Part shown: positions 11,151 through 38,399 of the stretch, piece after piece | Numbering within the stretch: the stretch's first letter is position 1 | Layout: every line of letters starts with the position of its first letter | Assembly (NCBI RefSeq): GCF_018977255.1 | Contig: NW_024704742.1 | Location: 51,028,001-51,092,000, forward strand | Direction of reading: 5' to 3' | DNA: 64,000 nt | DNA from: Callorhinchus milii | Taxonomy: Eukaryota | Translations under genes and position numbers: made by a program | The notes under the pieces: generated by a model | Seen by the model: the letters and a program-made list of their open reading frames with translations, nothing else | Told to the model about the DNA's origin: nothing | The model's database searches: none

Positions 11151-11883
11151 TAGACCTCAAATCTGTGGTAGGTGGTCGGAAGCACGGTCGAAGAGGAAGG
11201 TTTTCATGTGGGACTTGAAAAAGGGGAGAGGGGGGACAAGATGGATGGATTGAGGAAGAAATCCCTTCATAATCCTGAACACTGCAATCAAAGCAGAGAT
11301 AAGGAGACGTCACCCATTTTAACCATTGTGAATTTTTTGCTCAGTTTTCTTGAATATTTGATTTAATTCAATTTGCCAGGATTTCTCTTTCTCCCCGCAA
11401 ATGTTTTTTGTAATTTATTCCACAGATTGCTAGGGGAAGTGAAAATCTATTGAAGGAATCCAGCTGAAAGACTGTTGAGAAGAGGTGGTGCTCTTTAATA
11501 ACCTGAAAAACAGATACTTGCATATGGTCTTTACCTGCAGCTGAAATGCAATTCTATAGCAAAGCATTTCTGTTCTTGTCCAGCAGGTGTCGTTATAGTC
11601 ACATGCTAAACATTATCACCAATGAATTAATTATATCACACATTGGAACTTTTTCCCCATTATATTTTATTGTGGCCATATTTGAATTGCCTTTTGTACA
11701 ATGTTGCTGAACAATGCTTACATGATGCTGATATTATTACATTCATAAGTAGCTTGCATGAATGAGGATGCCTTGCTTAATGAGTTCCTTGTACATTTGT
11801 AAACTGCTGGATCTAACATTGATCTTTAATAGGTACAGAAATTAGCATAATCAAAGCATCGAGATATGGCCGTGTTAGTCTTA

Positions 11884-12065
11884 TCAAGTGGCCTTCCACC
11901 CAGGCCATGTCTTTATTATTTTGTAAAGAGTGTCTCCAGGACAAGCAGTTTTCAAAAACTGCCTGTGGCCCTTCAGGGTGTAGCGGGGGGTTAGATTTTT
12001 TCTGGAAACAGCGTAGGCTATCAGACTCTTGCTAGCATTCAGTGCAAGGTTGTTTGGGGAAGTAT
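11884..12065 (-). CDS. PGRP-A (short amidase-type peptidoglycan recognition protein), last coding exon
   Basis: Minus-strand acceptor ttggttgcag; NTSPNNLALNASKSLIAYAVSRKNLTPRYTLKGHRQFLKTACPGDTLYKIIKTWPGWKAT* carries the PGRP GHR and TxCPG motifs. AATAAA on the minus strand at 11666-11671. Confidence 0.93.
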
Positions 12066-12107
12066 CTGCAACCAAACAGAGACAAGTTATTAGCAAACTG
12101 AATGATA

Positions 12108-12671
12108 TACAGCCTTCCCCACTTAGATCAACATGTCGGGGACCGCTTGACATCTGTAGGACATCGACATAAATTGAAAAATAATGTAGACGCATGCATT
12201 GTGTCTACAAGAAGCTTTAGATGTAGTCATGTTGGCGTTGACCATAATTCAAACAAGGTCTTTAGGTTATCTTACAAGATCTCCAGTACAAGTTTGTCAC
12301 TTTATGTGGCAACTTTTGTCTGGTGTGCAGTTAAAACATAAGGCGGGCTCCTCCAAATTGTAATCCCATGAAATTTCTGGAAGACAGATCTTCTACTTCT
12401 CAAAGTGAGACATGTCGGCAGACTTACCCTCACTGCAAGTTTTGTTACCTTTCTTAAAAATAGGAGCTAAGTGGTAATAATACAATGCATTTAGTACTGT
12501 TAGGGATTTGAAAAATTTGTCATCATAAGCGTGCTGAAATTTATGTTGATGTCGACAAACCTGGTAAGTTCAGTGTTTTCCTATGTAGGGAAAGGACCCG
12601 GACTTCAAATTTTTGTTGACATGAGCGGGATGTCGATATAAACGCGTTCAAGATAAATGGGTAGAACTATA
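12108..12671. mobile_element. Possible old Tigger/pogo-like non-autonomous DNA transposon
   Basis: Degenerate inverted termini tacagccttccccacttagatcaac / gttcaagataaatgggtagaactata. Confidence 0.35.
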
Positions 12672-13964
12672 CTGACTTTTAATTTCATGAGAAGTTCAGA
12701 TATTCAGGACATTCACTACAACAAACAAAAACAAAATGAGATTGTATAGCACCTTTCATGTCCCAAGGCACTGGATAATCAATGTTTCAGACCTGAGTTG
12801 GGGGTCGGGGAAGGTGGATGGCGGGGGGGGAAGGAGGGTGACCGAAGGCACGATCGAAGAGGAGGATCTTGAGATGGTTCTTGAAGGAGGCAAGGGAGGG
12901 GGCGAGGGGCAGGGACTGGATTTCCAGAGGGTGGGAGCAGAGTTGCAGAAAGCCTGCCTGCCACTACTGTACTTCCAGTACATGTTTTTATACATGTATT
13001 CTTGAAAGGATCCCGTTCTCAACCACCCATTCTAATAACCTGTTCGAATGGTTGATTACCCTCTGTGTAAAGAAATATTTCCTGGAGTCTGCCCTAAAAT
13101 TACGATTCACAACTCAGAATGTGGCCTGCTGCCGTGGCTTAAATTAATTGAAAATGCAACAGCAAAACAACACCTCTCAGATAGGGAAGTGTCTCAAATG
13201 GTTTCCTAGGGACAGAAGTGGAACCCCTGGTACGACAATAGAGAAGTGTTCGAAACCTCAGTCTAAGAGATAGTTTATTTAGAATGGTATTGAAAGGAGA
13301 GAGGAAGGGTATAAACAGAAAGATTTAGAGAGAGAGTTCCAGGGAGCGGGGATAAAGAAGCAGAAATCTTGGTCATCAGTGGTAGAGTGCAGTAGATGGG
13401 GAATGTGGTACAGAATATTGTTAACAGAGCGGAGGTGAGGTAGTCAAACCACACAAAATCACAAAGATGGTAGTGAGCAGAGGCATTTGAAGGTCAGAAA
13501 GAGGATCTTAAAGTCAATTGGAAAAAGGAACTAGTGGATCATATAATATAATCCTTGGTTCTGCTGTAGCACATTATTACCTACATTTGATATAATTCCT
13601 TGTCCTTGTATTTGATATTAGCACCTCAACGCATTATTGAGACGTTTCAAAGCGCTTCACAGAATATATTGTAAGGTGTAGTAACTGAATTTTGTGGACA
13701 AGATACTATCTTGATGAAAACAATAGCAAGGATGGGATGATGGGCTCATGGAGCTCAGTACAGCAAATGTTGAAATCTTCACAGTGTTCAGTGATTCCCT
13801 CAAAATGACCATCATTGCTTCACAATCTCCAACCACTTCTATACACAAGGATAAAGTTTAGCCATCCTCTCTAGAGCCTAGATTTCTGCCTTGCTAATCT
13901 CAAAGTCCCAGCCCTTACATTATGGTACAAACTGTATGATAATATGCAAAGAGAATTTACTCAC

Positions 13965-14083
13965 TCATAAAGTTCCCCATGAACGCTATTCCATAGCTAA
14001 TATGGTTGTAGTGAAAAGTGTGGGCTCCCATTTTGTCCCATCCACGACCTTCGTAAATGTTCCCATCTTCACCAATAAGGAAA
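13965..14083 (-). CDS. PGRP-A middle exon ([40 protein letters not shown])
   Basis: 119 nt, ttttattcag acceptor and A|gtgagt donor, phase 2 to 1; classic PGRP FLIGEDGxxYEGRGW..GAHT motif. Confidence 0.95.
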
Positions 14084-14290
14084 CTGAATAAAAGAGAAAG
14101 AGGAGGACAATAATGAGTTCAATGCTGACTATCTTCACTATCTTTGCACCTTTACAAAATAGGGAAAGAGAAATGGGAAAGGTCATTCCACCCATTGAAC
14201 CCACTGCTTTCACAGACCATCAAACTATTATTGCCTTCATTCCATCTACTTTATCCCCTGAGGGAAACATCTGCACAGATCCTCATTAAT

Positions 14291-14892
14291 CAACAACAAC
14301 AACAAAATTACATTTGTAAAGCGCCTTTCACATCGGGAGGACGTCCCAAGGTGCTAGACAGACAGAGTTATGGACCCGAGCTGGGGGTCAGGGTTGGGGA
14401 GGGTGGAGGGCAGGGGGGGAAAACGGGGAGATCAAAAGTACAGTTGAACAGTAGGGTCTTGAGAGAGATCTTGAAGGTGGCGAGGGAGGGGGCGAGGCGG
14501 AGGGACTGCAGGATGGAGTTCCGGAAGTGGGGGCAGAGTGGCAGAAGGCCCACCCGCCAATAGTGGGTCGAGTGAGGTGGGGACGCAAAGCAGGCTGGAG
14601 TTCGCTGAGCGGAGGGAACAAACGGGAAGATAGGGGTTAGGAGGTCGCAGAGGGAGGGAGGAGCAAGACTGTGGAGGGCTTTGAAGGTGAGAACCAGGAT
14701 CTTGAACTGTATCCTCTGTGTGATGGGAAGCCAGTGGATTTGGGCAAGGATGGGGGTGATGGGGTCACGGAGCCTGGTGCGGGAGAGGACACGGGCTGCA
14801 GAGTTCTGGATGATCTGCAGCCTATGGAGGGAGGAGTTGAGGAGGCCAACAAGCAATGAGTTTGCATAGTCCAGTCTCGATGTAATGAAAGC
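14291..14892 (-). mobile_element. L2 LINE 3' fragment in a PGRP-A intron
   Basis: AFITSRLDYANSLL...QNSAARVL...HWLPITQRIQFKIL peptide; (CAA)n tail. Confidence 0.9.
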
Positions 14893-15867
14893 ATACAAAA
14901 TAAATATTTGTGTGATCATAGGAACGAGTTTCCATTCAGGTTTCTTACGAAATCTGATTAAGAAGTGCGCATGGAGAGTAATTTTGTTTGTTTGTTCATT
15001 CTTTCCTTCGTTTGTTTGTTTATTCGTTCAAAGTGATCATCTTCCTTGGGCTGGAGTAACAGACCCCCTTGCGTGAAAGTGACATGCTTGGCAATGGAAT
15101 GTCAGAATTGAGACAACCCTCTGTAGCCGTTGCAGTAATCTGGTCCTGAGCCAGTCAGGATTGCAGTTCTGCAGCCCTGCTGATGACAGACCAGTCAATG
15201 TGGCTCAGAGGTATCAGTAAGACCTGGGCAGACAGACTTAAGGCATGGAATTTCTTAAGAAAATGCTGGGCCAGGGATTCTTCCCACTCAGCTCAGTTAA
15301 CCCTACAAGTCAAAGTCCTCATAGGTAGGATGGACCTAACTGGACAAGCAGCAGGAAAGCTTGCTAGTCAGTGATATCATGGCAACCAATGCTATTTTAG
15401 TTGGTTAGGCTCCAGCAGTACTACAACACACATTCTGACATCCCCAAGGTCTTGCCAACAAGGCCTAATACTCTCCAAAATTAGGTAAGCCATTGAATGA
15501 GAGAGTATTTATTCCAGTTCAGACACGGGAATTTCCATATGTAGATGGTATGCTGGAACTCTCACTCTGGCTTGGATATTCTTAAGCATTGTGATTGCTT
15601 TCATTAATTTCAGCGCAACAGAAAATTAGTACATTAAAATTTTCATAAGTCTGATCTGTATAAATCGTATAATCTCCCAGGCAGTACATCTTCCCAAGCC
15701 CTGTTCAAGAATTGTATTCTATGCAAGTTTGACATAACACACACTTTGCATAAGCCATATTAAATGTACGGTCCCAACCGATACAGCATATACCATGAAG
15801 AAAAACATTTAAACATTTTACAATGTTCATCCATAGTTGAAACAGAATTGCTTTCCCCGAGACTTAC

Positions 15868-16069
15868 CTATAGCCAATGTCACACCATTGGCGAAACTTC
15901 ATGTGATAATTCTGGATATTGCGGAGCTGCCGCTTGCAGTCCTCTGTTTTAAAGCAACGGTTGCCAGCAGTGTGGTGAATCACTATGTATGATAAAGGTG
16001 GATCTAGAGTATCAGTGCAATTAGAAGGAACATTGGTCCATTCGGAATGCTTGATTATCAGCGGGTCGC
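15868..16069 (-). CDS. PGRP-A first domain exon (xDPLIIKHSEW...IVIHHTAG...WCDIGY)
   Basis: 202 nt, cttcatag acceptor, AG|gtaagt donor; IHHT and WCDIGY motifs; same length as the PGRP-B paralogous exon. Confidence 0.93.
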
Positions 16070-16384
16070 CTATGAAGAGCACAAATCAAGGCAATGAACA
16101 AATCTCGTTTAAAAATAACACTTCTTACATTTATGAAAGTCTCCTAGCCTAAAATGAATCAAAATGACCGGAGAAGAGGCTTGTGTTATATAACTTAAAA
16201 TAAAGTCAATACCCATTCATTTTTAGTTCGATCTAAAAATGTAAAGATGATGTAATATTATTAGATTAAAATCAATTTTGTATAAATTTAACATTTGGCA
16301 GCATGTCAAATCAAAATGTAGTTCATCTTTTCTTTCTTTCTCAGGTGTCTGCACTTTTCCTGAAGGCTCTGCTCTATGCTGAGG

Positions 16385-16760
16385 TAATAATAAGAATCCT
16401 TGTATTTGATATAGCGCCTTATCATGTCTTTGAGATGTCTCAAAACGCTTCACAGAATATACTGCAAAGTGAATTGACTGTATATTTTGTGGGCAAAACA
16501 CGGCAGCCAATTGTACACAGCAGTGTCCCACAAACAGTTGTTGACCAAATTAGTATTTTTAAAAAAAATATGTTGAAGGAGTTATTACCCCAGAAAAATG
16601 ATCCGTCAAACGACTAACAACTGGGTTCCTACTTACTACTGGGTAAACAGAGGCGTGTGAATTAAGAAAACTTGCCCAACATTTCACCCTGCCCAGGAAT
16701 CGAGCCCAGGTTCTCTCGCTTGCGAGACGAATGCTCTAACCACTGAGCTACAGCACTCCA
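16385..16760 (-). mobile_element. tRNA-derived SINE, long subfamily
   Basis: Same head and tail plus an extra internal segment (agtaagtaggaaccc); flanked by a gtaataat direct repeat. Confidence 0.85.
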
Positions 16761-17708
16761 ATGTAATAATTCAGGTATTGCAATTGTCTCTAAGTCTATT
16801 GGTCTATAGAACATAGACCCATATTAGGGTTCAATTTCAATGACACCGATTTCCCTTTGATATCTTGACAAAAGTAGACATTGTTCATGTATCAGGCTAA
16901 AGAGTGAATGTAGGTCCTTGTGAAGTATCAGAATCTAACCTGTTCCTATGTCCTTGTTTGCTGGCCATGCATTCTCATTTTCAAGGTGGAACATATCAAC
17001 GAGGGTCAGAACCAGGCTGATATTCCCCTCACAATCCCAAGGATTTAGAGAAAAGTGCATTATCTCATCTTAGAGCAGAGACCAAATCTGGGTTTTCAGA
17101 AAAAAGGGCAGAAAACTGGGGAAAAAAATGAACAATAAAAGTATATTTTGTTGGTCTTGCTGAATGCAAATTGGTTATGTATGACGTGTGCCGACAAATA
17201 CAGACACTACACTTCACAGTAACATCTGGTGATGTGCTCTGCTGTGTCTCGAAGACATGATGAGGTGCTATATAATATGCAAGGATTATCATTAAGTTTC
17301 AGGGTCAGGAGAAGGAGTTTGAATGGAACGAGGGGTTGAACCTAGGCCCCGGGGTCGGTAAGTACCAGAACAAAAAGCTTGTGCCAATGTCCAGCCGCTG
17401 TGGGTTCAGTTCCTGTCAATTTTTTTGTTGCCTGCATGACGCAATAAGGTTTTCTTGAAACTGAACTTCTACTTTGCTGTTTTAAATTAATCATCACACA
17501 CCTTCACACTTACACAATTAGATACAGGCTTTCACGTTTAGATGTGATGGGTTATGAAGGTCTGTACACCCCTGTTACAAAGTTAACAAAGTAAAATATT
17601 TTTCATAACTTGCACCCAGCTTCTCTAACGTTCAGTACAAAGTTGATGAGGATGTCTTATCCTTTACAATAATAGTATTGAAGTAATAATAATAATAATA
17701 ATCTTACG

Positions 17709-18037
17709 TGGAGTCCTGTAGCTCAGTGGTTAGAGCACTCGCTTTGCAAGCGAGAGACCTGAGTTCAATTCCAGGCACAGGGCGAAACCTTGGGCAAGTT
17801 TCCTTACTCCATACGCCTAATAATAATCCCTCCAAAACCAAAAACAATAATAAATTGGTCATTTTCAATCTACGACTGTTTGTGGGACATTGCTGTGCGC
17901 AATTGGCTGCCGCGTTCGCCCACAAATATACAGTCAATTCACTTTACAGTTTGTTCTGTGAAGCGCTTTGGGACGTCCTCCCGACGTGAAAAGCGCTATA
18001 TCAAATGCAAGGATTATTATTATTATTATTATTATTA
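17709..18037 (+). mobile_element. tRNA-Ala-derived SINE, short subfamily, young copy
   Basis: A box TAGCTCAGTGG, ctcgc-tttgcaa-gcgag anticodon stem-loop, B box GTTCAATTCC, L2-like 3' tail and (TAT)n end. Confidence 0.9.
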
Positions 18038-19022
18038 CATTTGGTCTAACACCTTTCATGTCTGGAGGACATCCCAAAGTATTTCACAGGATGTACTGTA
18101 AAGTGCAGTGATTGTGTTAATTAAAGTATGTTTGAAAAATGATCACCTTGTATTTATGATTGTGCTTACTTTTTGATATATCAATGGTTTCTTTCAATAA
18201 TTGCCACAAATATAAGACTTGCAATATCACACTGCACCAGTAACCTGACTCTGGTGTACATACTGCATAGGAACATGGAACATAGCAATTGCTAGCCAAA
18301 GAGAGATCAAGTTCCATTTATTCCACCTTCTACATCCTGGTAGTCGCTATAATAATGGAGATGTTGATAGCAATTAATTCTGTATGGATTAGTCTACCAT
18401 CACATTGGAAAGCTTTGGAAACCTTATATCCAAAGTTACCTAGTTCTTCCAAGGATACTCCACTCATCATGTCTCAAATTACTCATATACTGTATCCCAG
18501 AATATTATTTTATGCATATGAGCTGCCTACCTTGTACTGCAAAGAGGATTCCAGAGAACACAAGGAGCACCTTCATTTTCTAAAGTAAATAGAGAGACAA
18601 TTCAATAGATAGCCCTAAAAACATAATTTTGTAAAAAGTCAATAGAATAAATTGAATATTGTACACATATTTACAATTATCACCTTTGTATGAAAGACCC
18701 AATAATCAACAAGAATGAATTTTGGGGTATTTCAAACTACTACAGAAATAACATGTTACATTATTTAATTTAATCCTTGCATTTAATGTTGTGCCTTATC
18801 GCGTTATCGAGACGTCTCTAAGTGTTTCACAGTGAACTGAACCTGAACTCAAACTTGTGCCAATATCCAGACACTGTGGGTTCAGTTCCTTTCTAGTCTG
18901 AATAATTCAGTTGCTCACTGGAAAAAACCTCACTGAACCATTAAGTGATGTTATTTGGAAAATCCATAACATCAGCCATGATACCTTGTAAATCAGATGT
19001 CCTTGTAGGACTGCATCCTATT

Positions 19023-19337
19023 ATAATAATAATCCTTGCATTTGATATAGCGCTTTTCATGTCTTCTAGACGTCTCAAAGCGCTTCACGGAATATGCTGT
19101 AAAGTGAATTGACCGTATATTTGTGGGCGAAACGCAGCAGCCAATTGCTCACAGCAGTGTCCCACAAGCAGTCGTGGATTGAAAATGACCAATTTATTAT
19201 TGTTTTGTTTTGGAGGGATTATTATTAGGCTCTGTGTGGAGTAAGGAAACTTGCCCAAGGTTTCGCCCTGCCTGGAATTGAACCCAGGTGTCTCGCTTGC
19301 AAAGCGAGTGCTCTAAACACTGAGCTACAGGACTCCA
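19023..19337 (-). mobile_element. tRNA-derived SINE, short subfamily
   Basis: Reverse complement of the 17709 element over its full length. Confidence 0.9.
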
Positions 19338-20433
19338 TAATAAGAATAAGAATTTTAGAATAAGAATATTCTTATTCTCGAGAAGCCACAGGTTTCTCTT
19401 TACAAATATTATACCTAGAGGCATTCTATAATTCTTCGGATGAGACCTTAAGATGAGGTCCTGTCTGCCTGTTCAGGTGGACATTAAAGATCCCATGCCA
19501 TTGTTCTGAAAGAAGTGTTTAAAATTAGATTTGGGAGATTTGGATGCAGGCAAATTTAAAAATAATAACACATCGCTTTAAAACAAGCATAACAAAAGTA
19601 AATATGAGTGCAATTATTTTTGTAGAAGGATGAAAGGCATGTGGTACAATTTGTTGCACATATTATTGAACAAGAAGATATAAAAAGTTTCAAAAAACAA
19701 GTTTCAGGAAATTAAAATCAGTCAGGTTTATCAGATACTGAGATTGATGGATTGAAGGAATCCTTGGGATATTAGATAGCAGGTGACTCAGATGGTCTAT
19801 CCTGCCTGAGACTGTTACTGTATGTAGTACATGCATTCTTTCCTGCAGTATTATTAGCTAGCTCAGCATATGCCAGCAGAGGGCATCACTATATTTCAAT
19901 ACCTCCTGGGCACATCTCTGCAAATATAGTAAAGCGACTTTAGTAACAAGCTAGGAAATTTGCAAACTCAAATCCATGAGCAACCTACTTTAGAAGAGCA
20001 TCTGAAGTTCCACCACATTTGCTATCCGGGGTAAACTGATAGCAGACACAGCAGATATTCTACTGAGGGGTTTATTTTCCATTTGTTAGGGAACTTGCCA
20101 AACTTGCGCTACAAATCGATCATTCTACAATACAACATTGGCATCCCTCACCTTTCACTTTTACCAACCCAGCCATTCCCTTCAGTTAGACAACCCTGAC
20201 CTACTCCATAGCCCCCACTCTATTTGCCCCAACCATCAGCAGGAGGACTTTCTGTCACTTTCTGTCTCTGGAGCTCCATTCCCAGGTCCCTCTGACTTGC
20301 TCCCTTCCTCCTTCTCTCTTTCAAGGTACACCTCAAAACATACCTTGTTATCTGTGATTTCAGTCATCTTTCCCCTCCTCATCCCCTTCATCCGTGATTT
20401 CAGTCATCTTTCCCCTCTTCATCCCCTTCATTG

Positions 20434-20758
20434 TGGAGTCCTGTAGCTCAGTGGTTAGAGCACTCGCTTTGCAAGTGAGAGACCTGAGTTCAATTCCAGG
20501 CAGGGCGAAACCTTGGGCAAGTTTCCTTACTCCACACGCCTAATAATAATCCCTCCAAAACCAAAAACAATAATAAATTGGTCATTTTCAATCTACGACT
20601 GTTTGTGGGACATTGCTGTGCGCAATTGGCTGCCGTGTTCGCCCACAAATATACAGTCAATTCACTTTACAGTGTGTTCTGTGAAGCGCTTTGGGACGTC
20701 CTCCCGACGTGAAAAGCGCTATATCAAATGCAAGGAGTATTATTATTATTATTATTAT
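20434..20758 (+). mobile_element. tRNA-derived SINE, short subfamily, young copy inserted in an old L2 3' end
   Basis: Near-identical to 17709-18037. Confidence 0.9.
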
Positions 20759-21082
20759 CTCCCACCCTCAGCTCCTGTACCCAGTCAGAATTATCAAGAT
20801 CTTTGGGACGTCCTCCATGCATGAAAGGCAATTTATACGTAAGTGTAAACTTCCCCATTCCCCCACCCACATAAATTATATTGTAACGTGACAACCAAAA
20901 ACCTTTTCAATAACACCTTTTCAATAAAAATACATGTAACATAATGCAACATCAAATAGATTCTAATAACTTCACTTAATATAACAACTCCTTGACATCA
21001 GTGTATCAAAAAATAAAACGGGACAGAGCTTTAATCATTGGCTCTAACCCCTATAAAATGAATTCAGTTTGATGCAGTGCTG

Positions 21083-21458
21083 CACCAGATCTAAAGGTAA
21101 ATTTCTGTTTTACATAGAGGGTTGTGATTATATCGCTGTCATTTTGTGCAATTAAAACAATAAGCTCTTACAAATACAAACAAAACACAAAATACTGCAG
21201 ATGCTGGAATCCAGGTGTTGCCTGACCTGCTGAATTTCCTACCCCTCTCTGTTTTTCTTTAAGCTCTTACAAATATGTTGGTTCAGTGTCAGGTCATACG
21301 GTGAGGAAGCAAGGTCTTCGTATGAGCCATCAGCTCTGATGACTCACAGGGAGTATTACATCATTCACCATCAGTTTAATGTAATATAATCAGCACACCC
21401 ATGAATGGAATTGAAACAAGACCAACAGGAATGATTCAACACATCTAGAAACATCAAT
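21083..21458. promoter_or_regulatory. Duplicated upstream block of PGRP-A (candidate enhancer/promoter)
   Basis: Nearly identical to 37107-37393 apart from an 83-bp insertion with its target-site duplication and an ~11-bp indel; contains TTGTGCAAT, GAGGAAG, TGACTCA and TTACATCA. Confidence 0.55.
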
Positions 21459-21944
21459 GATACTAATCCTTGCATTTGGTATAGCGCCTTATCACGTCGT
21501 TGAGACGTCTCAATACAATCCCAGGATTTTGGGAGCAGATTAACATACCGAATGGTGGGATGGGGAGGGGAAAATATCACTAAAAGTCCAGTCAAAGAGT
21601 TAGGTCTTGATGTGGCTGGAAAGAGGGGAAGGAGGGAGTGAGTGGGAGGCATTCTGAGAATGGAGCTCCAGAGAGTGGGGGCAAAATGAGGCAAATGGGT
21701 TGGCGGGGATATGAAACAAATTGAAGTTTGCTGAGCAAAGGGAATGGCTGGGTCGGGAGGTCGCAGAGGTAGGATGGGGAGGGGGGAGTGAAGGACATAG
21801 AGGAGTTTCTCACTGGGGAAAAAGGGAGCTTAATGTGAGGCCAGGCTCAGCACTCTGTGTTTCTCCTCGGTTCCCCCTCAGCACCCGAGGGAGACTCCAA
21901 TCATCCGTCCTGACAGTAAACCACAAAAAATTGCCCTCACTAAC

Positions 21945-22380
21945 CCTCTCTCTCATGCTCTCTCTCTCTCTCTCTCTCTCACTCTCTCTCACTCTCTCTC
22001 AATCACTCTCTCTATCCCCTCTCTCTCCCTCTCTCGCACCCACTCCCTCACACTCTCTCGCTCTCTCGCACACTCTTTCTCTCAATTACTCTCTATCACT
22101 CCCCCCCTCACACCCTCTCTCCCACTCACTGTCACTCTCTCCCAGTCACACACTCTCTCGCACACATGTTCTCTCCCTCTCTCTCCTCTCTCTCACTCCT
22201 CACTCACATACACACACTCTCTCTTTCTCCCCCCTCACACACTCTCTCTGCTCTCTCACTGTCTCTCTGCTCTCTCCCGCTTTCTCTCTCTGCTCCCTCC
22301 CTCCCAGTCTCTTTCTCTTTCTATCAGACACTCTTTCTTTCTCATCTCTGTCTCCCCCTCACTCAGGGTTGCTCACTGTC
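21945..22380. repeat. CT/CA-rich low-complexity tract
   Basis: Degenerate (CT)n/(CA)n. Confidence 0.9.
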
Positions 22381-22557
22381 TAGCAGCGGCAGAAGCCGTC
22401 AGTGAGGAGGACGGGGTGGGTGGGGAGACCCTCTTACCTTTCCCTCAGTTCGGGGAGAGACTTCTTGACAGACGGTAGGTAGCGCATTGAGACACTTTGC
22501 TGGGGTCTGTCAGGAAATCCCTCTGGAGCTGAGGAAAAGGCAAGCGTTTCTCCTCAC

Positions 22558-23320
22558 TTGCCCCCTCCTACCTCTCTGACACCCTACCAACCTGTCCGCT
22601 CCCTCCATTCGTCGGGCTCCGGTCTGCTCCATGTCTCCCGCCCGACCCGCCCTACCATTGTGGCTGAGCTTTCAGCCTCTCTACTTCCACACTCTGGAAC
22701 TCTATCCTACGGTCCCTTCGCCTCACTCCCTCCCTTGCGTCCTTCAAGGCCGATCTCAAGACCCTTCTCTTCGACCGTGCCTTTGGTCTCCCTCCCACCT
22801 CTCTGCCTTCCCTCACTCCTACCCCACCCCTTCCCCATGCTCAGGCCCCGACACCTGACTGTTCAGTGCTTTGGGATGTCCTCCCTACGTGAAAGGCGCT
22901 CTATAAATGCAATTTTGTTGTTGTTGTTTGAGGGTTCTCGACTTCAAGATCCTCACACTCGTGTTCAAATCCCTTCACTCTCTGGCACCTCCCTACCTCT
23001 CCAACCTCGTCACCCCCCAATCCACCACCTGTCGTCTCCCCTCGACTGGCACTGGCCTCCTGCTCGTCCCTCGCACCCTCCGCTCCACTATCGGAGGTTG
23101 TTTCAGCTACAACACCCCAAAACTCTGGAACACTTTCCCTCAATACCTCTGCCTTGCCCCCTCTCTCCCCTTTTTCAAGTCTCACCTGAAAACCTTCTTC
23201 TTCGACTGCGCTTAAGGCTCCTTCCTCCGCCCCTCCACCGGCTTGTTCTCAGGCTCCGCTACTATTAAGCAATTAGAAATGCTAGGCTGCGTGGAAGACA
23301 CTATATAAGTACAACTTGTT
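22558..23320 (+). mobile_element. Two tandem L2 3' fragments
   Basis: DFKILTLVFKSLHSLAPPYL peptide; L2 tail motif ggcgctctataaatgca and (TTG)n. Confidence 0.8.
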
Positions 23321-26300: not shown

Positions 26301-27449
26301 ATCATTTAGATAATGTGTACAAGCAAATTATTTCTGTGGAGAGACTGTCACCAATTGGTTGAAATTATTTTACCCTGAAAGCGTTTAGCAGTTAAAACAA
26401 TAAGATTCCACGAGTGGATGATAACTCTGGATCAACAATAAATTGCATTTATATAGCATGTTTCACATCCGGAGGATAACTCAATGCAGGTTATTGTTGT
26501 GGTTGTTATTGTTGATAATGTTGATATCGAATGAGACTTAAGGCTGTTAATTGACTTAACCTCCGTGGGGTAGCAAATGGTGTCTCCTTGGAGCTGAACT
26601 GGCTCCAAGGTGACATGCCTGGCAATGGAATGTTGGAATTGAGCCAACCCTCTGTGGTGGTCTCAGTAGTCCAGTCCTGAGCCAGGCGGGTCCCCAGTAT
26701 TCGCATTTCGCCCACAAATGCACAGTCAATTCACTTTACAGTCCATTCTGTGAAGCGCTTTGAGACGTCTAGAAGACGTGAAAAGCGCTATATCAAATGC
26801 AAGGATGATGATTCCAGGGCACTACTGATGACAGGACAGCAGGTCTGGCTCATCATCACGACTTGGAAAGGCAGACGAGTCACTGGGGACAGGGAATGTT
26901 AACTCAGCAAACCAAAACCCTAACGGGTAGGGTGGTCCTAGCTGGACAAGCAGCAGGAGAGCTTGCCAGACAGCGATATCAATGGAAAGCTATGAGGTTT
27001 TAACTGGTTAGATTCCAGCAGTACCCTAATGCACACTCTGAGAGCCCCAAGCCTTGGCTCTTGCCAACCTGTGCCTAATACTTCCCAAAATTAGGTAAGC
27101 AGGATGCTTCCCTCCAAGGAGAGAGTGTGCATTCCATTCCAACAATCTATCGCTGGAGTTTTCATGTGTAGATGGGATGTATGGAAATCTCAGCTTGGTT
27201 TGGTTTCTGTATGTGTCAGACATCCGGTTGAAAAAAAAACCTTAATTGACTCATCACTCACTATGTCAAAACAGCATGAGGCAACCAAAAACAAAGCAAT
27301 CAGGAAGCCAAATCAGTTTGGCAATACATTAAGGGATATGTGAAGAAAGCGGGAAATTAGAATTGAAAGGATTGGTTGAGGTACAGATCAGCCATGATCT
27401 AATTAAATAGCCGAACCGGCTCGAAGGGCTGAACGGCTTCCTCTTGTTC

Positions 27450-29560
27450 CTATGTTCCCCTCCCTTATCCACTTCCTTACTCTTCCCAACTCCCCCCCAC
27501 CACCCTCCATGGTCAATTCTCCCCCAGAGCCTAAACCTCTCCCTCTGTCTCCGAAGCCGAAACGCCACCCGCTCACTCACTCGCATTTCTCTCCAAAATA
27601 TCTGCTCTCTCTTAAATAAATAAAGCCCTCATGATCCATAACCTCATCCTGGATGAGCACATTGACATACTTGGGCTCACAAAAACTTGGCTGTCCCCCT
27701 GTGCCCCTGATCGAAGCCTCCCCCCCCATTCCCCGGCTACACTTTTCACCACACCTATTGCCCAAGCCGATATGGCGGCGGGGTGGCCCTTATCTCCCAA
27801 AGCTCCCAAACTTCCCTCGCTCTATTCCCCTATTCCTCCGGCTCCTTCCCTTCTTTTGAACACTTGACCCTGTACCATTCTCCCTTTCCTTCAAAACCCT
27901 CCTCATTTATCGTCCTCCCAAACCACCTAGTTCCTTCATCCCTGGCACCTCCCTACCTCAGAGATCTGCTTACCCCACCATCTACTAGATGAAGCCCACC
28001 ACCTGCTGCCTTGACCCCGTCCCCACCCAGCTGCTGGTCTCCCAACTCCTCCTCCTCTCCCGGCAGCTGGCCGACAGTCAACTAGTCTCTCTCCTCAGGC
28101 TTTGTTCCTCCCCCCCTTAAAACCGCTGTCATCATTCTCCTCCTTAAAAGCCCACCATTGACACCCTCCAAACTCACAAATTACCAATCCATTTCCAACC
28201 TGCCTTTCCTTGCCAAAGGTCTGGAATGAGTTGTCGCTAACCAATTTGCTCCATTCCCTCCTCGAGCCTTTGCAATCTGGTCTTCTCCCTGGTCACAGCA
28301 CAGAGACAGCACTTATCAATGTCAGAAATGACATCCTCTCTCTTTGTGACCAGGGCTCCCTCTGTCTCCTCGTCCTCCTGGACCTCTCCGCCACGTTCGA
28401 CACAGTTGATCACACCATCCTCATCCACCGCCTCTCCTACTTCATCCACCTCAGTGAAACTGCACTAGCTTAGCTCGAGTCCTACCAAACAAAACCACCT
28501 CCACATTATCTCCTCAAACAGTTTCTCCTCCCGCCACCCCCCACCGGTCACCGATGGTGAACTCCAGGGTTCCATCCTTTGCCCTCTCCTCTTCCTTATC
28601 TACATGCTCCCTCTTGGAAATATCATCTGTAGACATGGGGTAAACTTCCACATGTATGTGGATGACACACAAATCTAATTCTCCTGCTCCAGCTGCAACT
28701 CCAGATCCGCTGATGTTGTGGACATCAGGGCCTGGATGGGTGAAAACTTCCTACAACTAAATGTTGACAAGATGGAATCCATACACATTGGCTCCCATCA
28801 ACGTCTTCCAACCTGTCATTCTGATCTCCTCAACCTTTCCGGCCTATCCCTCAGACTTACCGAACCAGTGTGCAAACTAGGTGTCAGGTTCAACCCACAT
28901 CTATCCTTCCTTCCCCACATTCGTTTTCTGTGTAGAGAACCGCCTTCCTCTACTTCAGCTACATTACCCATCTCCGACCGTACCTTACCCCAGATGCAGC
29001 CGAAACAAATTGATGCATTCGTCTCCTCCCGACTCGACTTCTCAAATGCCCGCTTTGCCGGTTTCCCCAGCTCCACCATGCACAAGATCCAGCTTATCCA
29101 AAACTCCACTGCCCGCAAACTCACCTGTACTAAACTCCGTAACCCCATCACACCAGTTCTAGCTAGGCTCCACAGGCTCCCTATCACTGAATGAATCAAT
29201 TTTAATATCCTCACATTTGTTTTCAAATCCCTTCATTCCCTGCTTCCAACCTGCTTACCCTCCAACCGACAACCTGCTGCCTCTGCTCAACTGGCTCCGG
29301 CCTTCTGCATGTCCCTCGTGACCTTCGTTCCACCACTGGTGGTTGCGCTTTCATCCACTATGCCCCGAAACTCTGAAACACTCTTCCTCTTTCCCTCCGC
29401 CTTGCCCCTTCCTTCCCCATCTTCAGGTCGTGCCTGAAGACTTTCCTCTTCAACCGTGAATACTATTGCCTGCCCCTCACCCCAGTTCGCCACTGTGCTC
29501 TGCCACTGTCAAGTGCTCTGGGACTCTACCCTGTGTGAGGGGTGCTATATAAATGCAATC
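27450..29560 (+). mobile_element. Degraded L2 LINE (endonuclease remnant, RT, 3' tail)
   Basis: IDILGLTKTWL, QSGLLPGHSTETAL, LLDLSATFDTVDH, AWMGENFLQLN and SRLDFSN peptides with frameshifts. Confidence 0.9.
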
Positions 29561-29860
29561 GGGCTGTAACCATCCTCTATGATAACTTCCTTCAGTTTGC
29601 CCTAAAATTGCCGTTCACAAGTTGTCGTTGTTGTTGTTGTTGCTGATGCCCTTCTAGTCACAAGCTAAACATTGCCAACAGAACATTCTGACATCACACT
29701 GTATTTGGAATTTAATTTTAATGCATTTTATTGTGACTACTTTTGAATGACATTAAATTGTCTTTGGTACAGTATCTTAAGCATGCAATGTTGACATTTA
29801 TATGGTGCTGATTCAATTACATATACAAATAGCTTGCATAAATTTCTGATATTAATAGGC

Positions 29861-30033
29861 CTACCATTTAGGCCATTCCTTTATTGTTTTGTAGAGAGAG
29901 TTTCCAGGACAAGTTGTTTCCCCCAAATCCCTATGGCCTTTCAGTGTGTAGTGGGATACCAGGTAATTTTTGGAAATGGCACACTTTATCAATTTTGTGG
30001 CAGCAATCACCGCAAGGTTGTTAGGAGAATCTT
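29861..30033 (-). CDS. PGRP-B last coding exon (KDSPNNLAVIAATKLIKCAISKNYLVSHYTLKGHRDLGETTCPGNSLYKTIKEWPKW*)
   Basis: ttggttgcag acceptor; GHR and TTCPG motifs; minus-strand AATAAA at 29727-29732. Confidence 0.93.
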
Positions 30034-30512
30034 CTGCAACCAAACAAAGACACTTTCTTATGAAACTGAATGATTCACTAAAAGGAGAAACAATACATTC
30101 ACAAAATATTGCAAGAGATCCAAATGAAGAGGCTTTTCCTTTCAGAATATCAACCCTTCTGTTGTCCCATTACAGCATCACAGGGTTTCTTGAATGAATG
30201 CAGTAACCGGGCTGTAAACATCCTTTGTGGTAACTTATTCCAGTGGCTACATACCTTTAGTGTGCCCTAAAATTGCCATTCACAAATATGAGCTTATGTG
30301 TGTTTGTGATTTTAAAGTCAATAGTAATTGTCCAATTACTGTAAACACAATTTTTGATGCATGGAGACATCCACAAACTGATGTTAATATAATATGACAC
30401 TGAAGGGATCAGCAAGCATTTCACTTTTAAGTAACCAGTATTATTATATAAAACATCCTCACATTATGATGGTGCAAATTGTACGATAATATGTACAAAG
30501 ATATTTACTCAC

Positions 30513-30631
30513 TCATAAAGTTCCCCATGAACGCTATTCCAAAGCTGAGATGATTGAATTGAGGAGTGTGGGCTCCCGATTTGTTCCATCCACGACCTTC
30601 ATAGATGTTCCCATCTTCTCCAATAAGGAAA
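30513..30631 (-). CDS. PGRP-B middle exon ([40 protein letters not shown])
   Basis: 119 nt with the same splice sites and phases as the PGRP-A exon at 13965-14083. Confidence 0.95.
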
Positions 30632-31589
30632 CTGAATAAAAGAGAGAGAGGAAGACAATAATGAGTTCAATGCTGACTACCTTCACTATCTTTGCACCTT
30701 TATGAAATAGGGAAAGAGAAATGAGAAAGATCATTCCAGCCATTGAGCCCACTGCTTTCACAGACCAGCCAAACTGTGCCATTGCCTTTATTCCATCTAC
30801 TTTATTTTCTGAGGAAACTGCAATGTTTTATGAGGAGACAATGGTGGATCTCAGGATCCTGAAGTCATTTAAGTAAAGGTTTGATGCTGTAATGGCAGGA
30901 TGGTACTGTGGGTATTCTGGAAGATGAGATCAAATGTGCTTAAGTTCCTACTCCATCTAAACCAATCTTATGTAATCAAAATCAAATATCTTGATTATGT
31001 TTATATAATCCATGCTGTAGGCCCTGCCCCAGCTCCCACCCTATTCTGTGACAGGGTAGGGTGGTAGGCTATGACATGGCCCTCCAATAGACCAAAGGCC
31101 TGTGCGACATCTGAGCATGTGTGCTCAACCTCTGCTGAGCACCTGCACTAGTCACAGTGCCCCCTGTGGCCACGGAATCTAAGCCTAACTGGTCATTCCG
31201 GATAACTATTTGCTGAGCTCTTTTTCCTTGGAGTGACAAGTTATCAAGTGTTTACTACACTTAAAGATTTGAATTAAAGCCCTCGCTCCTAACCTTCTTT
31301 TTCCCATGGAAACAAGTTCAACTCTATGAATCTCCACTCATAACTCCATTCAAACTCCAGGATTAATCCTTGTGAACAAACCAATAAATGAACAAATGCC
31401 CTGTTTAATGCAAATTGAATGTATTGCTGGATACAAAATGGCCACAATTTGTTCTAGAATGAGATGTTAAACCCAGCTCCTGTCTGCCTGTTCTTCAGAG
31501 GGGTATTAAAAGTTATCCTACTTGAGAGGGAAGGAAGTTTCCCTTCATGCGTTTCCCAACAATTCTACAAATTAATTGACCATTCATAT

Positions 31590-32205
31590 CATGGCCAGTG
31601 GAGGCTGGCAAGAACTGGTGTGATGGGGGTGCAGAGTTTTGTGTGGGTGAGTATCTGAGTGGTAGAGTGTTGGATTATTTGAATTTTGTGGATGGTGGAG
31701 CTGGGGAGACCAGTGAGGAGAGCATTGGAATATTTGCGTAGTGATGAAGGCATGGACAAGGTTTTCAGCTATGTTGGTTGTGAGGTACGGATGGAGGTGG
31801 GCAATGTAATTGGGGTGGACAAATGTGGTCCTGGTCAGGGAATGGATGTGGGGTAGAAAGGAAAGATGGGGATCAAAACTGACGCCTAAATTGCGCATGG
31901 GTTCGGAGAATCTGAGGGAGAGCCCAGGGAGGTTGAGGAGTTCAAACCCGCAGGAAAGAAGACATTGACGGAAGCCAAAGAGTGTGACTTCTATCTTGCC
32001 GACATCCAGCTTCAAGAAATTCATGCTCATCCAGGCCTTCATGTCCGCCATACAAGCTGACAGAACATCAGCGGACTGGGAGTCGCAGCTCGACGAGAAG
32101 TAGTTTGGGTATCATCCGCCTACATGTGGAAGTTGTCTGCGGATGATATCGCCGAGAGGGAGCATGTATATAAGGAAAAGAAGGGGGCCTAGGCTGGAGC
32201 CTTAA
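31590..32205 (-). mobile_element. L2 RT fragment in a PGRP-B intron
   Basis: KAWMSMNFLKLDVGK and RNLGVSFDPHLSF peptides. Confidence 0.85.
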
Positions 32206-33499: not shown

Positions 33500-33832
33500 A
33501 TAATATTCTTGCATTTGATATAGCGCCTTATCATGTCTTCAAGACATCTCAAAGCTCTTCACAAGATATACTGTAAAGTGAATTGACTGTATATTTTGTG
33601 GGCGAAACGCAACAGCCAATTGTGCACAGCAGTGTCCTACAAACAGTCGTGGATTGAAGTGACCAACCTATTATTTGTTTTGAAGAAATTATTACAACCG
33701 GAAAAGCAATCCGCCAATCGACTAACAACTGGGTTCCTACTTACTACTAAGTAAATAGAGGCGTGTGAAGTAAGGAAACTTGCCCAACATTTCGCCCTGC
33801 CAGGAAACAAACCCAGGTCTCCTGCTTGCGAA
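33500..33832 (-). mobile_element. tRNA-derived SINE, long subfamily (5' truncated)
   Basis: Homologous to 16385-16760. Confidence 0.8.
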
Positions 33833-34420: not shown

Positions 34421-34539
34421 ACCTTTTTAAAGATACTGTGGCGTTAGGAGGTTAAAAGCTGTCTGTGTATACGGAATGCACACTATATTTAAGGAACCTA
34501 GGACATTAGATAAACGAGTGAATTTTGTGAGTCAGATCA

Positions 34540-35144: not shown

Positions 35145-35346
35145 TTGTAACAAATATCACACCAGTGGTGAACACTTATGTGATTTTTCTGGATAATTTG
35201 GAGCTCACGCTTGCACGTTGTCTTGTGGAAGCAACGTTTGCCAGAAGTGTGATGAATCACAATGAAGGGTTCTGGCTTCTCCAGGGCTATGTTGCATTGA
35301 GAAGGAATGTTTGTCCAATCAGAATGTTTTATAATCCGTGGGCAGC
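35145..35346 (-). CDS. PGRP-B first domain exon (GCPRIIKHSDW...IVIHHTSG...WCDICY)
   Basis: 202 nt, ctttatag acceptor, AA|gtaggt donor; PGRP motifs. Confidence 0.93.
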
Positions 35347-35804
35347 CTATAAAGAGCACAGATACCGACAAATGAACATTAAAGTCAAATTCAAAATCAA
35401 CACTTATGAAGGTCTCACAATCCAAAACACATCTAAATGACAGAAGGTGCTCTTGTTGTATGAATACAAATAAATATCTATTAATTATCAGGCTTTAATA
35501 TTAAATTGCAGAGGTCAGTAAATCATTTCAAATCATTGCAACACACCAATTTGCATTTACACAGCCAGTGGCAGAGCATGATGCCGAGCTGGGGGGGAGG
35601 TGACCGTAAGCACGTCGAAGAGGAAGGTCTTTAGGAGTGACCTGAAGATGGGGAAAGAGGGGGCAAGGAGGAGGGTTTGAGGGAGAGAGGTTCAGAGTTT
35701 GTATATAATATATATATAGTATATATAGTTTCAATACAGGTTCAATAGTTTGCAGGAAACTAGTTGTTTGGCTTTGGTGAGGTTCCTGCAAATGAGCTTC
35801 TTAC

Positions 35805-35850
35805 CTTGCACTGCCAAGAGGATTCCAGAAATCAGAAGGAGCAGCTTCAT
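35805..35850 (-). CDS. PGRP-B signal-peptide exon (MKLLLLISGILLAVQG); spliced protein about 179 aa
   Basis: ATG in aaaATGa context just after a tgtttcag acceptor (implies an upstream 5' UTR exon); hydrophobic 15-aa leader; G|gtaag phase-1 donor matches the next exon; 46+202+119+173=540 nt open frame. Confidence 0.88.
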
Positions 35851-35999
35851 TTTCTGAAACAAATACAGAAACAATTCAAAAGGGAGCCTTGAAAACGCAA
35901 TATTTTCTTTATAAAAAGGCAATAGAATTTTTTCTGGTCACATGCAGAAATCCATGACTATGCTTAAGAGTACCCAAACCAGACTGAGAGTTTCACAAA

Positions 36000-36113
36000 A
36001 CACAAAATACTGCAGATGTTGAAAATCTGAAACAAAAACAGAAGTCGCTGTGAACACTCAGCAGGTCAGGCAGCATCTATGGAGAAAGGAAAGTGAGTCA
36101 ATGTTTCAGGTCC
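36000..36113 (+). mobile_element. MER6-like short repeat (aaatactgcagatg...ctcagcaggtcaggcagcatc)
   Basis: Same family as the 83-bp insertion at 21177-21259; resembles, from memory, an abundant chondrichthyan repeat. Confidence 0.6.
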
Positions 36114-37106
36114 ACAAGTTTCACGTATGTCTGCTGCCTACATATTGACATTTCCTGTATCTGGAAAGTAATGTATCCTCTTTTCAAAAGTCTATCTCTT
36201 TGATCATTCTTACAGTCACCTTCCTCCTCCCTCACTCATTCTGCTTATGTCTTGCAGCATCTCTGTAAAGTGCACTGAGAATGTATATGACTTCATATTG
36301 TTGTTGTGTTGTTTGGTGGTGGTGTTGCTAAGATAGATGATCTCAGTTGGGGTGACACTAAGGGGCTCTCTATATACTGTCAGAGCCCAGGTTAGGGAGG
36401 GTTCCTGCCTCTGATCACTAACCACTAATCATACAGCAAACATATACGTAAAATAATACTTAATGCAATGCATTGAGAAGTTGATGCAGCATCACAGCCC
36501 ACTATGTGTTTAATTGCTATACCCTGAATTTGCAGTCAGCAGTTTCTGTATAGGAATCCCAACTATCCTGGGCATTAGAAACTCATTAGAAACTTTTCAT
36601 CTTTATGTCTTCATTTGCAGCTACATAGATTTTATTCACACAGACATTTAACATTTTATAATTTTTACATCTTCTTCCCTTTCCAGATCCTTCAACCTAT
36701 GGGTGAGTGACTTGCCAATGAAGGGTATCTCCACAGGCTCCTAGTTAGGCTGTTTTGTGCAATCAACTGTTTTGCAAAATCTCCTCTATCCCTTTGGCAG
36801 ATTCCTTAGTTTAGCATAATGACCCAGCTGAACTTGGTAACTTTGTAACATGAACACCTACTATGTAAATAGGAACGTCAAACTCAGTAAGGCTAGATCC
36901 AATCCAATTAATAGATCCATAGAAATATATGGCATAATAGGAGGCCATTCAGCTTATTTTTGTGTCAAATGGATCCCAATAACATTTTTATAACAACTCC
37001 TTAACCTTCTATAGAAATCAGATATCAATGAGAATGAAATGTGTAATCATTGTCTTTGATCGATTTAAAATGAGTCCATATGATGCAGTGTTACACATAT
37101 GTACAT

Positions 37107-37393
37107 CACCAGATCTAAAGGTAAATTTCTGTTTTACATAGAGGGTTGTGTTTACATCGCTGTCATTTTGTGCAATTAAAACAATAAGCTCTTACAAATA
37201 TGTTGGTTCAGTGTCAGGTGTACTGTGGTCATACGGTGAGGAAGCAAGGTCTTCGTATGAGCCATCAGCTCTAATGAGTCACAGGGAGTATTACATCATT
37301 CATCATCAGTTTAATGTAATATAATCAGCACACCCATGAATGGAATTGAAACAAGACCAACAGGATTGATTCAACACATCTAGAAACATCAAT
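37107..37393. promoter_or_regulatory. Duplicated upstream block of PGRP-B (candidate enhancer/promoter)
   Basis: Paralog of 21083-21458, about 1.3 kb upstream of the PGRP-B ATG; TGTTTAC, TTGTGCAAT, GAGGAAG, TGAGTCA. Confidence 0.55.
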
Positions 37394-38399
37394 CTCCATG
37401 TAAGCATGCAAATGTGGCTAACAGCAGCCTGAAACAAGTTTTCTTGTTTATCAGTGAATTAGAACACTGCATTTCTCATTTTGTTTTTCACCAGAGTGAA
37501 GAAAGTAAAAATTCAGTTTTAACACATTAAAGTAAAGAAATCAACCACCAAGGTGACTTTATCTAAAATAAACAAAAAATATGATTCAATAAGGAGAATG
37601 GTGGGGCAGTGGGTTAGACACTTTCAGCTTTGGGAGTAAACTTTGAATGCAGCCCAGATACCTAGGTTACATAGAATTACCTAGAAGTGACAACACCAAA
37701 ACATGTCATTTGACCTAACTAGTCCATGTCAGAATATATACACCACATAAGCCTTCACCACCTTAAATGAATCTCAGCCTCCTCCACAGAACAACAACTT
37801 GCATTCGTATAACACCCTTCTGAGGCGATCTGTCTGCAAAGCACACAACTTTCCAAATCGCTCTTTTCACTTCTATCTCATTCATGCAACAAGTTTCATC
37901 TTAAAGGCATTGATGAAAGTCTCCATTGCATGTCAGCTGTAAAAGGCTGATGTGAATCAATTTGGGATTTCTCAACCCATAAACCGAAAACCTTCTCCTA
38001 ATAGATTACTATACAGCCAGTGCACTCAGCCGTCATGGGATAATGGACTTTGGGGATGAAACAGAAAAAGGGCCTTGGGATGTGAAGTACGTAGGACATC
38101 CCTTGTATGCCAATTCACACGAATGCTCTAACAGCAGAGCATAGTGTTTGCAGGTCATGAGCTTTCCTGTCTGAGATGCAATTTACATCTGAAACACTTT
38201 TACTAGTGCAGTCCAGAATTCAATACCTCAATCTGCTGAACAACGGCACAGAAAGAAAAAATATTTACTCGCATCCTCCACATCCACAATTTTAACAACA
38301 GCATTTTCTCTGTGCATAATGATATTCCGTGTGAACTACAATAAACTCCGGGTATCTGGAATTCAAACCTACCCAGATTTTTTTTCACAAGCTTTAATG

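Follow-up and report, generated by a model that had tools for sequence, protein, structure and literature searches.

The stretch of DNA analysed here (the window) spans 64,000 nucleotides of the Callorhinchus milii genome (RefSeq assembly GCF_018977255.1, contig NW_024704742.1, positions 51,028,001 to 51,092,000 of the forward strand), and carries on its minus strand two tandem genes for peptidoglycan recognition proteins (PGRPs), here called genes A and B. Unless another contig is named, positions are counted from the first letter of the window. The genes appeared as two sets of three PGRP-like pieces among the minus-strand stop-to-stop frames, and reading of the exon borders gave four coding exons for each, with all six introns of the GT-AG type, exon phases that match between the genes, and both frames intact (Table 1). 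These borders bear out an earlier interpretation made from the letters alone (the sequence-only reading), which had described two minus-strand genes sharing internal exons of 202 and 119 nt in the same phases. It had also predicted that gene B encodes a 179-aa protein with a signal peptide; spliced translation and the N-terminal exon agree with this prediction, and spliced translation gives gene A a product of 182 aa.

A signal peptide had previously been proposed only for gene B, and the signal-peptide exon of gene A is an addition made here. In a tblastn search with a shark protein (P0005, from Heterodontus), 16 of 16 residues of the gene A N-terminus were identical to the query; the exon has the acceptor ...tttag/AAA and the donor GTAGGC. 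The 3' border of the exon carrying the 5' untranslated region (UTR) of gene A reads AAG/GTATGT, and the last exon of this gene carries GHR and the catalytic CPG. The N-terminus of gene B is identical to that of P0001, one of two UniProt models described below.

Transcripts and public models of genes A and B

A run search found eight small runs with a C. milii organism label, coming from two studies and carrying 12-29% of the sampled words of positions 11500-16100. Four of these runs (X1, X2, X4 and X5) were aligned to positions 11300-31299, and joints were read among the contig pieces listed. For gene A, the joints between 11654/11659-12065, 13965-14083 and 15868-16068 were present in X4 record 16 (840 nt) and X5 record 22 (898 nt), i.e., exons 2, 3 and 4 are joined in one contig in two of the four runs. 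X5 record 22 also covers the 5' UTR exon, and its 50 unlisted letters fit the 49 nt of the signal-peptide exon plus 1 nt of the next exon. For gene B, the joint from 30033 to 30513 (CT..AC, which is GT..AG on the minus strand) was found in all four runs. The last exon and 3' UTR of gene B are connected to exon 3 in X2 record 15 and X5 record 25, and these two contigs extend 232 and 272 letters, respectively, past the aligned stretch, as exons 2 and 1 would. An X1 contig has a loose end at 30631 that matches the final 30 nt of exon 2 in reverse complement, including a Cys codon to which we return below.

The 3' ends of both genes were likewise apparent. Three contigs stop at 11654-11659 in gene A, with AATAAA at 11671-11666, and in gene B the same X2 and X5 contigs stop at 29703 and 29710, with AATAAA at 29732-29727, placing the polyadenylation signals 12-30 nt ahead of the contig ends; one X1 contig extends beyond the 3' end of gene B, to 29529. 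Since contigs of public runs carry the predicted joints, both genes yield transcripts whose splicing follows the models, in samples from two studies. The sequence-only reading had suggested mapping RNA reads across the predicted junctions. With spliced contigs found for both genes, the objection that no spliced transcripts exist therefore falls away.

Both genes are already predicted in UniProt, though mis-modelled. Two C. milii models cover the pair, namely A0A4W3IFJ9 (entry A0A4W3IFJ9_CALMI, 182 aa; P0001) and A0A4W3IYB8 (207 aa; P0003). The former is 100% identical to the translation of exon 2 of gene B, and is made of exons 1 and 2 of gene B followed by exons 3 and 4 of gene A; it is therefore a fusion of two genes. 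No joint between exon 2 of gene B and exon 3 of gene A appeared among the contig pieces listed, which came from an aligned stretch ending short of that gene B exon and so do not speak for or against such a transcript. The latter is gene A with another first exon (17060-16938), which lacks a signal peptide; X5 record 22, the sole contig with listed pieces upstream of exon 2, uses the exon at 18531-18579 and not the one at 17060-16938. In practical terms, the gain is that two innate-immune genes in a cartilaginous fish used as a reference now have correct models.

A T>G difference at position 11920, present in contigs of three of the four runs, turns Lys170 of gene A into Asn, as in the UniProt models. 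The single Lys/Asn difference between the window and these models is due to this change, which is probably an allele.

The fused model could be taken to mean that the second copy is an assembly artefact, or that one of the copies is a pseudogene, as if an older assembly or the gene builder had seen only one gene. However, the copies are 62% identical in protein (111/179) and 74.5% identical in coding DNA, both frames are intact, each gene has spliced contigs of its own in runs of the two studies, and a whole-genome search returned the six domain exons (exons 2-4 of A and of B) as separate matches. The frames, contigs and divergence refute this explanation, to which we assign a negligible probability.

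Table 1. Features of the window, with the A/B comparison by exon (positions from the first letter of the window; dS by the NG86 method)
Feature	Positions	Strand	Remarks
Gene A, 5' UTR exon, non-coding	20344-20459	-	First 116 letters of contig X5 record 22, which continues into the coding exons
Gene A, signal-peptide exon	18531-18579	-	Coding 18576-18531 (46 nt), MKVLLVFSGILFAVQ, then a G split by the intron
Gene A, exon 2 (202 nt)	15868-16069	-	First part of the PGRP domain, with HHT and DIGY
Gene A, exon 3 (119 nt)	13965-14083	-	Pfam Amidase_2, 30.9 bits (cut-off 26); spliced in contigs
Gene A, last exon and 3' UTR	11654-12065	-	Coding 12065-11884 (182 nt with stop); TGA 11884-11886
Gene B, signal-peptide exon, coding part	35805-35850	-	46 nt, MKLLLLISGILLAVQ, then a G split by the intron
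Gene B, exon 2 (202 nt)	35145-35346	-	Unusual DICY replaces DIGY; 100% identical to P0001
Gene B, exon 3 (119 nt)	30513-30631	-	Pfam Amidase_2, 28.9 bits
Gene B, last exon and 3' UTR	29703-30033	-	Coding 30033-29861 (173 nt with stop); TAG 29861-29863
Exon 1, A vs B			blastn 79.6% over 142 nt; dS 0.19
Exon 2, A vs B			No blastn match; dS 1.18
Exon 3 and flanks, A vs B	13913-14266 vs 30457-30817	-	blastn 87.5% over 361 nt; dS 0.27
Exon 4, A vs B			blastn 72.4% over 225 nt; dS 0.63
SLAIN-family exon (SLAIN2 by position)	3891-4205	+	Pfam SLAIN, E 3.4e-18
SLC10-family gene (SLC10A4 by position)	39233-46590	+	Frames 39233-39874, 40629-41045, 46066-46590
ZAR1-like gene	47253-48726	+	Long first frame and 3CxxC zinc-ribbon exon
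Furry-family last exon (FRYL by position)	62936-63229	-	Pfam Fry_C, E 3.6e-43, profile positions 604-696 of 696

Catalytic residues and relatives of the pair

Each protein has a single PGRP domain, preceded by a hydrophobic N-terminus encoded on its own exon. The Pfam family Amidase_2 (PF01510) matched five of the six domain exons at E <= 0.1, with the exon translations covering profile positions 4-32, 42-83 and 72-131, and both exon-3 translations pass the curated cut-off alone. PF01510 is also precomputed for P0001 and P0003. P0003 matched 33 sequences in the Protein Data Bank (PDB), the best solved match being human PGLYRP1 (1yck; E 2.4e-51, query residues 43-205).

We examined the catalytic residues in a MAFFT alignment of A and B with T7 lysozyme (gp3.5, from NC_001604) and the animal PGRPs named below. 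At the positions of T7 H17, Y46, H122, K128 and C130, the residues of A and B alike are H, Y, H, T and C; this presumed T7 numbering fits the sequence only without counting the initiator Met. The same five residues are found in the short PGRPs of Heterodontus, Polypterus, Xenopus and Terrapene and in Bombina PGLYRP2, and Talpa PGLYRP1 has S, Y, H, T and S. The Thr at the K128 position of A and B is as in other animal PGRPs. The description of the pair as short and amidase-type thus stood up to comparison, in that the zinc-binding and catalytic H, Y, H and C that would make such an enzyme are retained in both proteins.

These four residues bind zinc and are required for amidase activity, and human PGLYRP2 and Drosophila PGRP-SC1b become inactive when the Cys is changed to Ser or Ala (PMC11785313, PMC5725095). 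Because A and B have the full residue set, and because zebrafish PGRP5 and salamander PGRP-S1 have amidase activity, we infer that A and B are secreted zinc amidases with a role in immunity that cut the MurNAc-L-Ala bond.

A six-frame search of the whole assembly (991.5 Mb) with P0001 matched only the exons in the window and C29:1008960-1009277, and a search with the Pfam profile gave the same two loci. Over 99 residues, the frame on contig C29 has 52.5% identity with the C-terminal domain of an N-acetylmuramoyl-L-alanine amidase of 510 aa from Bombina (PGLYRP2), and the two pair at 100/99 in the IQ-TREE analysis below, where supports are given as bootstrap / SH-aLRT (Shimodaira-Hasegawa-like approximate likelihood ratio test). 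The intron before F-x-x-G is common to the C29 gene, A and B, in the same phase, and the C29 gene reads through the site of the last intron of A and B, a phase-1 intron following GNFM, at which exons 3 and 4 are split. The closest PGLYRP2 relative in the genome is therefore not the pair but this separate locus. At that locus (L005 916-1821, minus strand) the PGLYRP2-type last exon comes directly after a long (TG)n tract, and its frame runs ~190 aa past the domain; an earlier domain exon was not found there.

Sequences for the phylogeny came from protein searches, which gave 17 matches among 38 candidates and 609 matches at E <= 1e-10 among 2322, the best 120 of the 609 being used, and from a representative library, from which the best 150 of 28,425 matches were taken. 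Ten of the representatives were identified (Talpa PGLYRP1, Bombina PGLYRP2, two mammalian PGLYRP3, five amphibian or turtle proteins and one from a tick). Of 417 domain hits, which came from 272 proteins, 362 rows had at least 140 of the 182 profile positions; in a FastTree analysis of these rows, A and B joined the sharks within a group of 69 vertebrate rows. The careful IQ-TREE analysis comprised 55 rows, namely A, B, the C29 piece, five elasmobranchs, bichir, coelacanth, lungfish, Bombina PGLYRP2, nine mammalian, 14 amphibian and 12 turtle rows, and eight invertebrate outgroups. P0001 (fused), P0003 (the same as A), a 109-aa Chiloscyllium fragment and the remaining rows, mostly invertebrate or multi-domain, were left out.

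In the 55-row tree, A and B grouped together (100/92), then with the five elasmobranchs (100/97), and then with bichir (94/95). When the columns of exons 1 and 3, where gene conversion may have acted, were removed, the corresponding values were 99/92 for A with B, 98/89 for the chondrichthyan clade and 99/94 with bichir. Mammalian PGLYRP1/3/4 formed a clade of their own (96/91), as did amphibians with turtles (91/86). By these trees, a short-PGRP clade of cartilaginous fishes and bichir is solid, and the earlier suggestion of lineage specificity does not hold for this kind of gene, given such close relatives in five elasmobranchs and in bichir. The position of this clade is another matter: the split of PGLYRP2 (with invertebrates) from all short and intermediate vertebrate PGRPs obtained 18/94, and a tree in which the fish short clade and the PGLYRP2 pair form one group had a slightly better likelihood than the free tree (approximately unbiased (AU) test, p 0.53), so that nearness to PGLYRP1/3/4 and nearness to PGLYRP2 would both fit. 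The phylogeny of the spliced proteins called for by the sequence-only reading thus yielded a clade with elasmobranchs and bichir, and no supported placement among PGLYRP1/3/4 versus PGLYRP2.

The likeness between A and B varies from exon to exon (Table 1). The most similar tract, around exon 3, takes in ~240 nt of flanking intron, and the remaining A/B introns align at repeats resembling short interspersed elements (SINEs) only. This exon-by-exon pattern of identity and synonymous divergence (dS) points to an old duplication with later gene conversion; the tract around exon 3 is likely a product of conversion, and exon 1 perhaps is as well. The ratio of nonsynonymous to synonymous divergence (dN/dS) between A and B is 0.42 overall and 0.26-0.67 per exon, which indicates purifying selection on both copies. 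As a best estimate from the best trees, the duplication would have taken place in the chimaera lineage after it parted from sharks and rays.

A predicted pair of secreted amidases

Taken together, these results make it highly probable that A and B are two tandem, expressed C. milii genes for small, secreted, single-domain PGRPs of the catalytic type, which arose as chimaera-lineage duplicates within a short-PGRP clade. According to this explanation, a signal peptide of ~16 residues would be removed and the mature proteins secreted, after which their PGRP groove would bind bacterial peptidoglycan by its muramyl-peptide. Zinc would be held by two His and one Cys, and, with the catalytic Tyr, the bond between N-acetylmuramic acid and L-alanine would be hydrolysed. 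The expected outcome is that bacteria are killed or weakened and immunostimulatory wall fragments detoxified, as shown for zebrafish PGLYRP5 and salamander PGRP-S1. As for the history of the pair, one old tandem duplication in the chimaera lineage would have produced A and B, which would later have been partially homogenised around exon 3 and probably exon 1.

Several observations weigh against this explanation or parts of it. None of the runs is recorded as RNA, their RNA nature being a guess by the tool, and unspliced contigs across both genes also occur in X1. The IQ-TREE analysis took in 55 of the 362 domain rows, and AU tests keep groupings of A with elasmobranchs without B (p 0.148) and of B with elasmobranchs without A (p 0.45), which leaves the chimaera-side timing of the duplication as a best estimate. 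In gene B, codon 81 (35152-35154, minus strand) encodes Cys, whereas all eight other aligned sequences, T7 lysozyme included, have Gly immediately ahead of the catalytic Tyr; this replacement could impair catalysis. Gene A, for its part, has lost Cys17 (GCP to GDP) and Cys140 (LIxC to LIAY), both kept in seven of seven other aligned animal sequences; in the PGLYRP1 structure these two cysteines presumably pair with each other.

The change in gene B also bears on a rival explanation in which the copies have divided their roles, A being still an amidase and B having become either a weak or non-catalytic binder or, like the mammalian PGLYRPs with their disulfide-linked dimers, a bactericidal protein joined by disulfide bonds. 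In keeping with such a division, the Gly-to-Cys change falls at an otherwise invariant site and its codon is present in a transcript contig; the cysteine number is odd, with 7 in mature B, owing to this very replacement, against 5 in mature A; B has the longer end branch (0.39 vs 0.27); and the X1 word depth of the spliced B contig is far above that of A, a measure that does not rank genes. However, B retains H, Y, H, T and C, and dN/dS is below 1 in every exon. We consider a division of roles unlikely, and continue to favour two catalytic-type proteins.

Genomic neighbourhood and known PGRPs

The order of genes in the window is SLAIN, gene A, gene B, SLC10, ZAR1-like and Fry_C, with strands as expected (Pfam, family level); gene A and the SLAIN gene are arranged tail-to-tail, gene B and the SLC10 gene head-to-head. 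The first two SLC10 frames matched Pfam SBF (E 2e-20 and 7.4e-09). The third had no Pfam match, and in the ESM Atlas it returned 'hypothetical protein' clusters only, with one look-alike cluster having SBF in 38% of its members. In the ZAR1-like gene, Zn_ribbon_3CxxC (the ZAR1-type finger) was matched at 48538-48726 on the plus strand with 22 bits, below the cut-off of 23, and the first frame (47253-48044) gave no Pfam or usable ESM Atlas match. The flanking paralogues are named here after the human order, which we take to be SLAIN2-SLC10A4-ZAR1-FRYL. The SLAIN2-SLC10A4 block proposed by the sequence-only reading is thus recovered at the family level, by Pfam, order and strands, and the paralogue names themselves come from that presumed order.

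This setting is central to another rival explanation, that the pair represents a separate ancient PGRP lineage at SLAIN2-SLC10A4, orthologous to neither PGLYRP1-4 nor teleost pglyrp2/5/6, and lost or moved in bony vertebrates. The clade of chondrichthyans and bichir does stand apart from the mammalian and the amphibian-turtle clades, and the PGLYRP2 relative of the genome lies elsewhere. No teleost was among the vertebrates identified in the best 120 of 609 and the best 150 of 28,425 matches, and a ranking of 145 representatives (P0126-P0270) by likeness to vertebrate versus invertebrate anchors brought out no further vertebrates and no teleost. Moreover, our literature search found no publication setting a PGRP beside SLC10A4, ZAR1, SLAIN2 or FRYL, and nothing relevant turned up on PGLYRPs of Callorhinchus or on shark PGRPs as amidases. 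The available excerpts of the carp, snakehead, salamander, zebrafish and Montano PGRP papers contained no synteny or chromosome statement, and excerpted interval lists for chicken (GGA4 66-67 Mb) and salmon, which give named genes only, include SLAIN2, SLC10A4 and FRYL and no PGLYRP (PMC10976558, PMC6786245).

Nevertheless, the short PGRPs follow a rough species-tree order (cartilaginous fishes with bichir; coelacanth; lungfish; amphibians and turtles; mammals), which a single ancestral gene would equally produce, and the deep branches are weak, as seen in the 18/94 split and the AU result for union with PGLYRP2. In addition, three elasmobranch relatives are called 'peptidoglycan recognition protein 5' by NCBI without '-like' (Rhincodon and Pristis, both in the tree, and the 109-aa Chiloscyllium fragment, which is not). 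Such a name presumably reflects computed orthology to the zebrafish gene. On balance, a separate ancient lineage appears rather improbable, and we retain the explanation of chimaera-lineage duplicates within a clade of short, catalytic-type PGRPs.

Copies of one SINE-like repeat in both orientations (16396-16725, 17743-18115, 19026-19303, 20468-20743 and 33500-33832) fill introns and spacer, and have very high contig depth in the runs, up to ~10^5. Between A and B, at 21700-23300, lies a pyrimidine-rich low-complexity stretch with frames reading SLSLSL and PSPS and a GC skew of -0.38. Mutually similar frames of 170-226 aa, at 9876-10603, 14368-15027, 28162-29194 and 31584-32111, look like fragments of a retroposon family; one of them sits inside the gene A intron between exons 2 and 3.

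Among known PGRPs, the closest to the pair are the short proteins of elasmobranchs and bichir with which it forms one clade (pglyrp5 of Rhincodon and Pristis, 'PGLYRP1-like' of Heterodontus and Cetorhinus, and 'PGRP-SC2-like' of Polypterus). Like A and B, they are 167-196 aa long, with the same putative N-terminal signal sequence, one PGRP domain and the full H/Y/H/C set, and they are 51-60% identical to P0001. The chimaera has two copies, whereas each elasmobranch species has one sequence in the tree (their genomes were not searched for more); of the chimaera copies, A lacks two conserved cysteines and B has Cys for Gly.

In terms of function, zebrafish PGLYRP5 is the best model for A and B: this short PGRP is reported to act as an amidase and to kill bacteria, for which it needs His, Tyr, His and Cys (PMC11785313). 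Mammalian PGLYRP1 resembles A and B in size, in the signal peptide that is putative for A and B, and in whole-domain match. It differs from them in that two of the three zinc positions are Ser in the Talpa protein and the Cys position is Ser in the human protein (1yck), and mammalian PGLYRP1 is not an amidase (PMC11785313). PGLYRP2 has the same catalytic residues as the pair; however, the domain of the Bombina protein occupies residues 324-510, and A and B lack the N-terminal extension. The chimaera PGLYRP2 relative on C29, in turn, lacks the intron that splits exons 3 and 4 of A and B. The short PGRPs of amphibians (AdPGRP-S1, Xenopus PGLYRP1) are again of similar length (182-184 aa) and have H, Y, H and C, but they are 43-46% identical to P0001 and form their separate clade with turtle proteins. 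One of them, salamander AdPGRP-S1 (184 aa; H49, Y84, H159, C167), binds peptidoglycan, degrades it with Zn, and inhibits bacteria (PMC5725095).

These comparisons touch on two published views of PGRP evolution. According to Montano et al. 2011, the short-type ancestor has no detected descendant among fish genomes, and the PGRPs of fishes go back to the long type, PGRP-L (PMC3071341), a derivation that the present data neither confirm nor overturn. It would have to be revised if the SLAIN2-SLC10A4 interval were the ancestral jawed-vertebrate home of a catalytic short PGRP, lost or moved in tetrapods, with PGLYRP1/3/4 descending from another paralogue; we regard this as a distinctly unlikely scenario, which if true would give fishes the surviving short-type descendant that the 2011 model lacks. 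The split between catalytic and non-catalytic PGRPs, on the other hand, has been dated after the origin of tetrapods (PMC5725095). Cartilaginous fishes, having short PGRPs with amidase residues alongside a separate PGLYRP2-type locus, bear on this question, and genes A and B fit such a date. All in all, the pair is of a kind that has been described before in sharks, bony fishes and amphibians, and its presence in a chimaera is unlikely to surprise a specialist.

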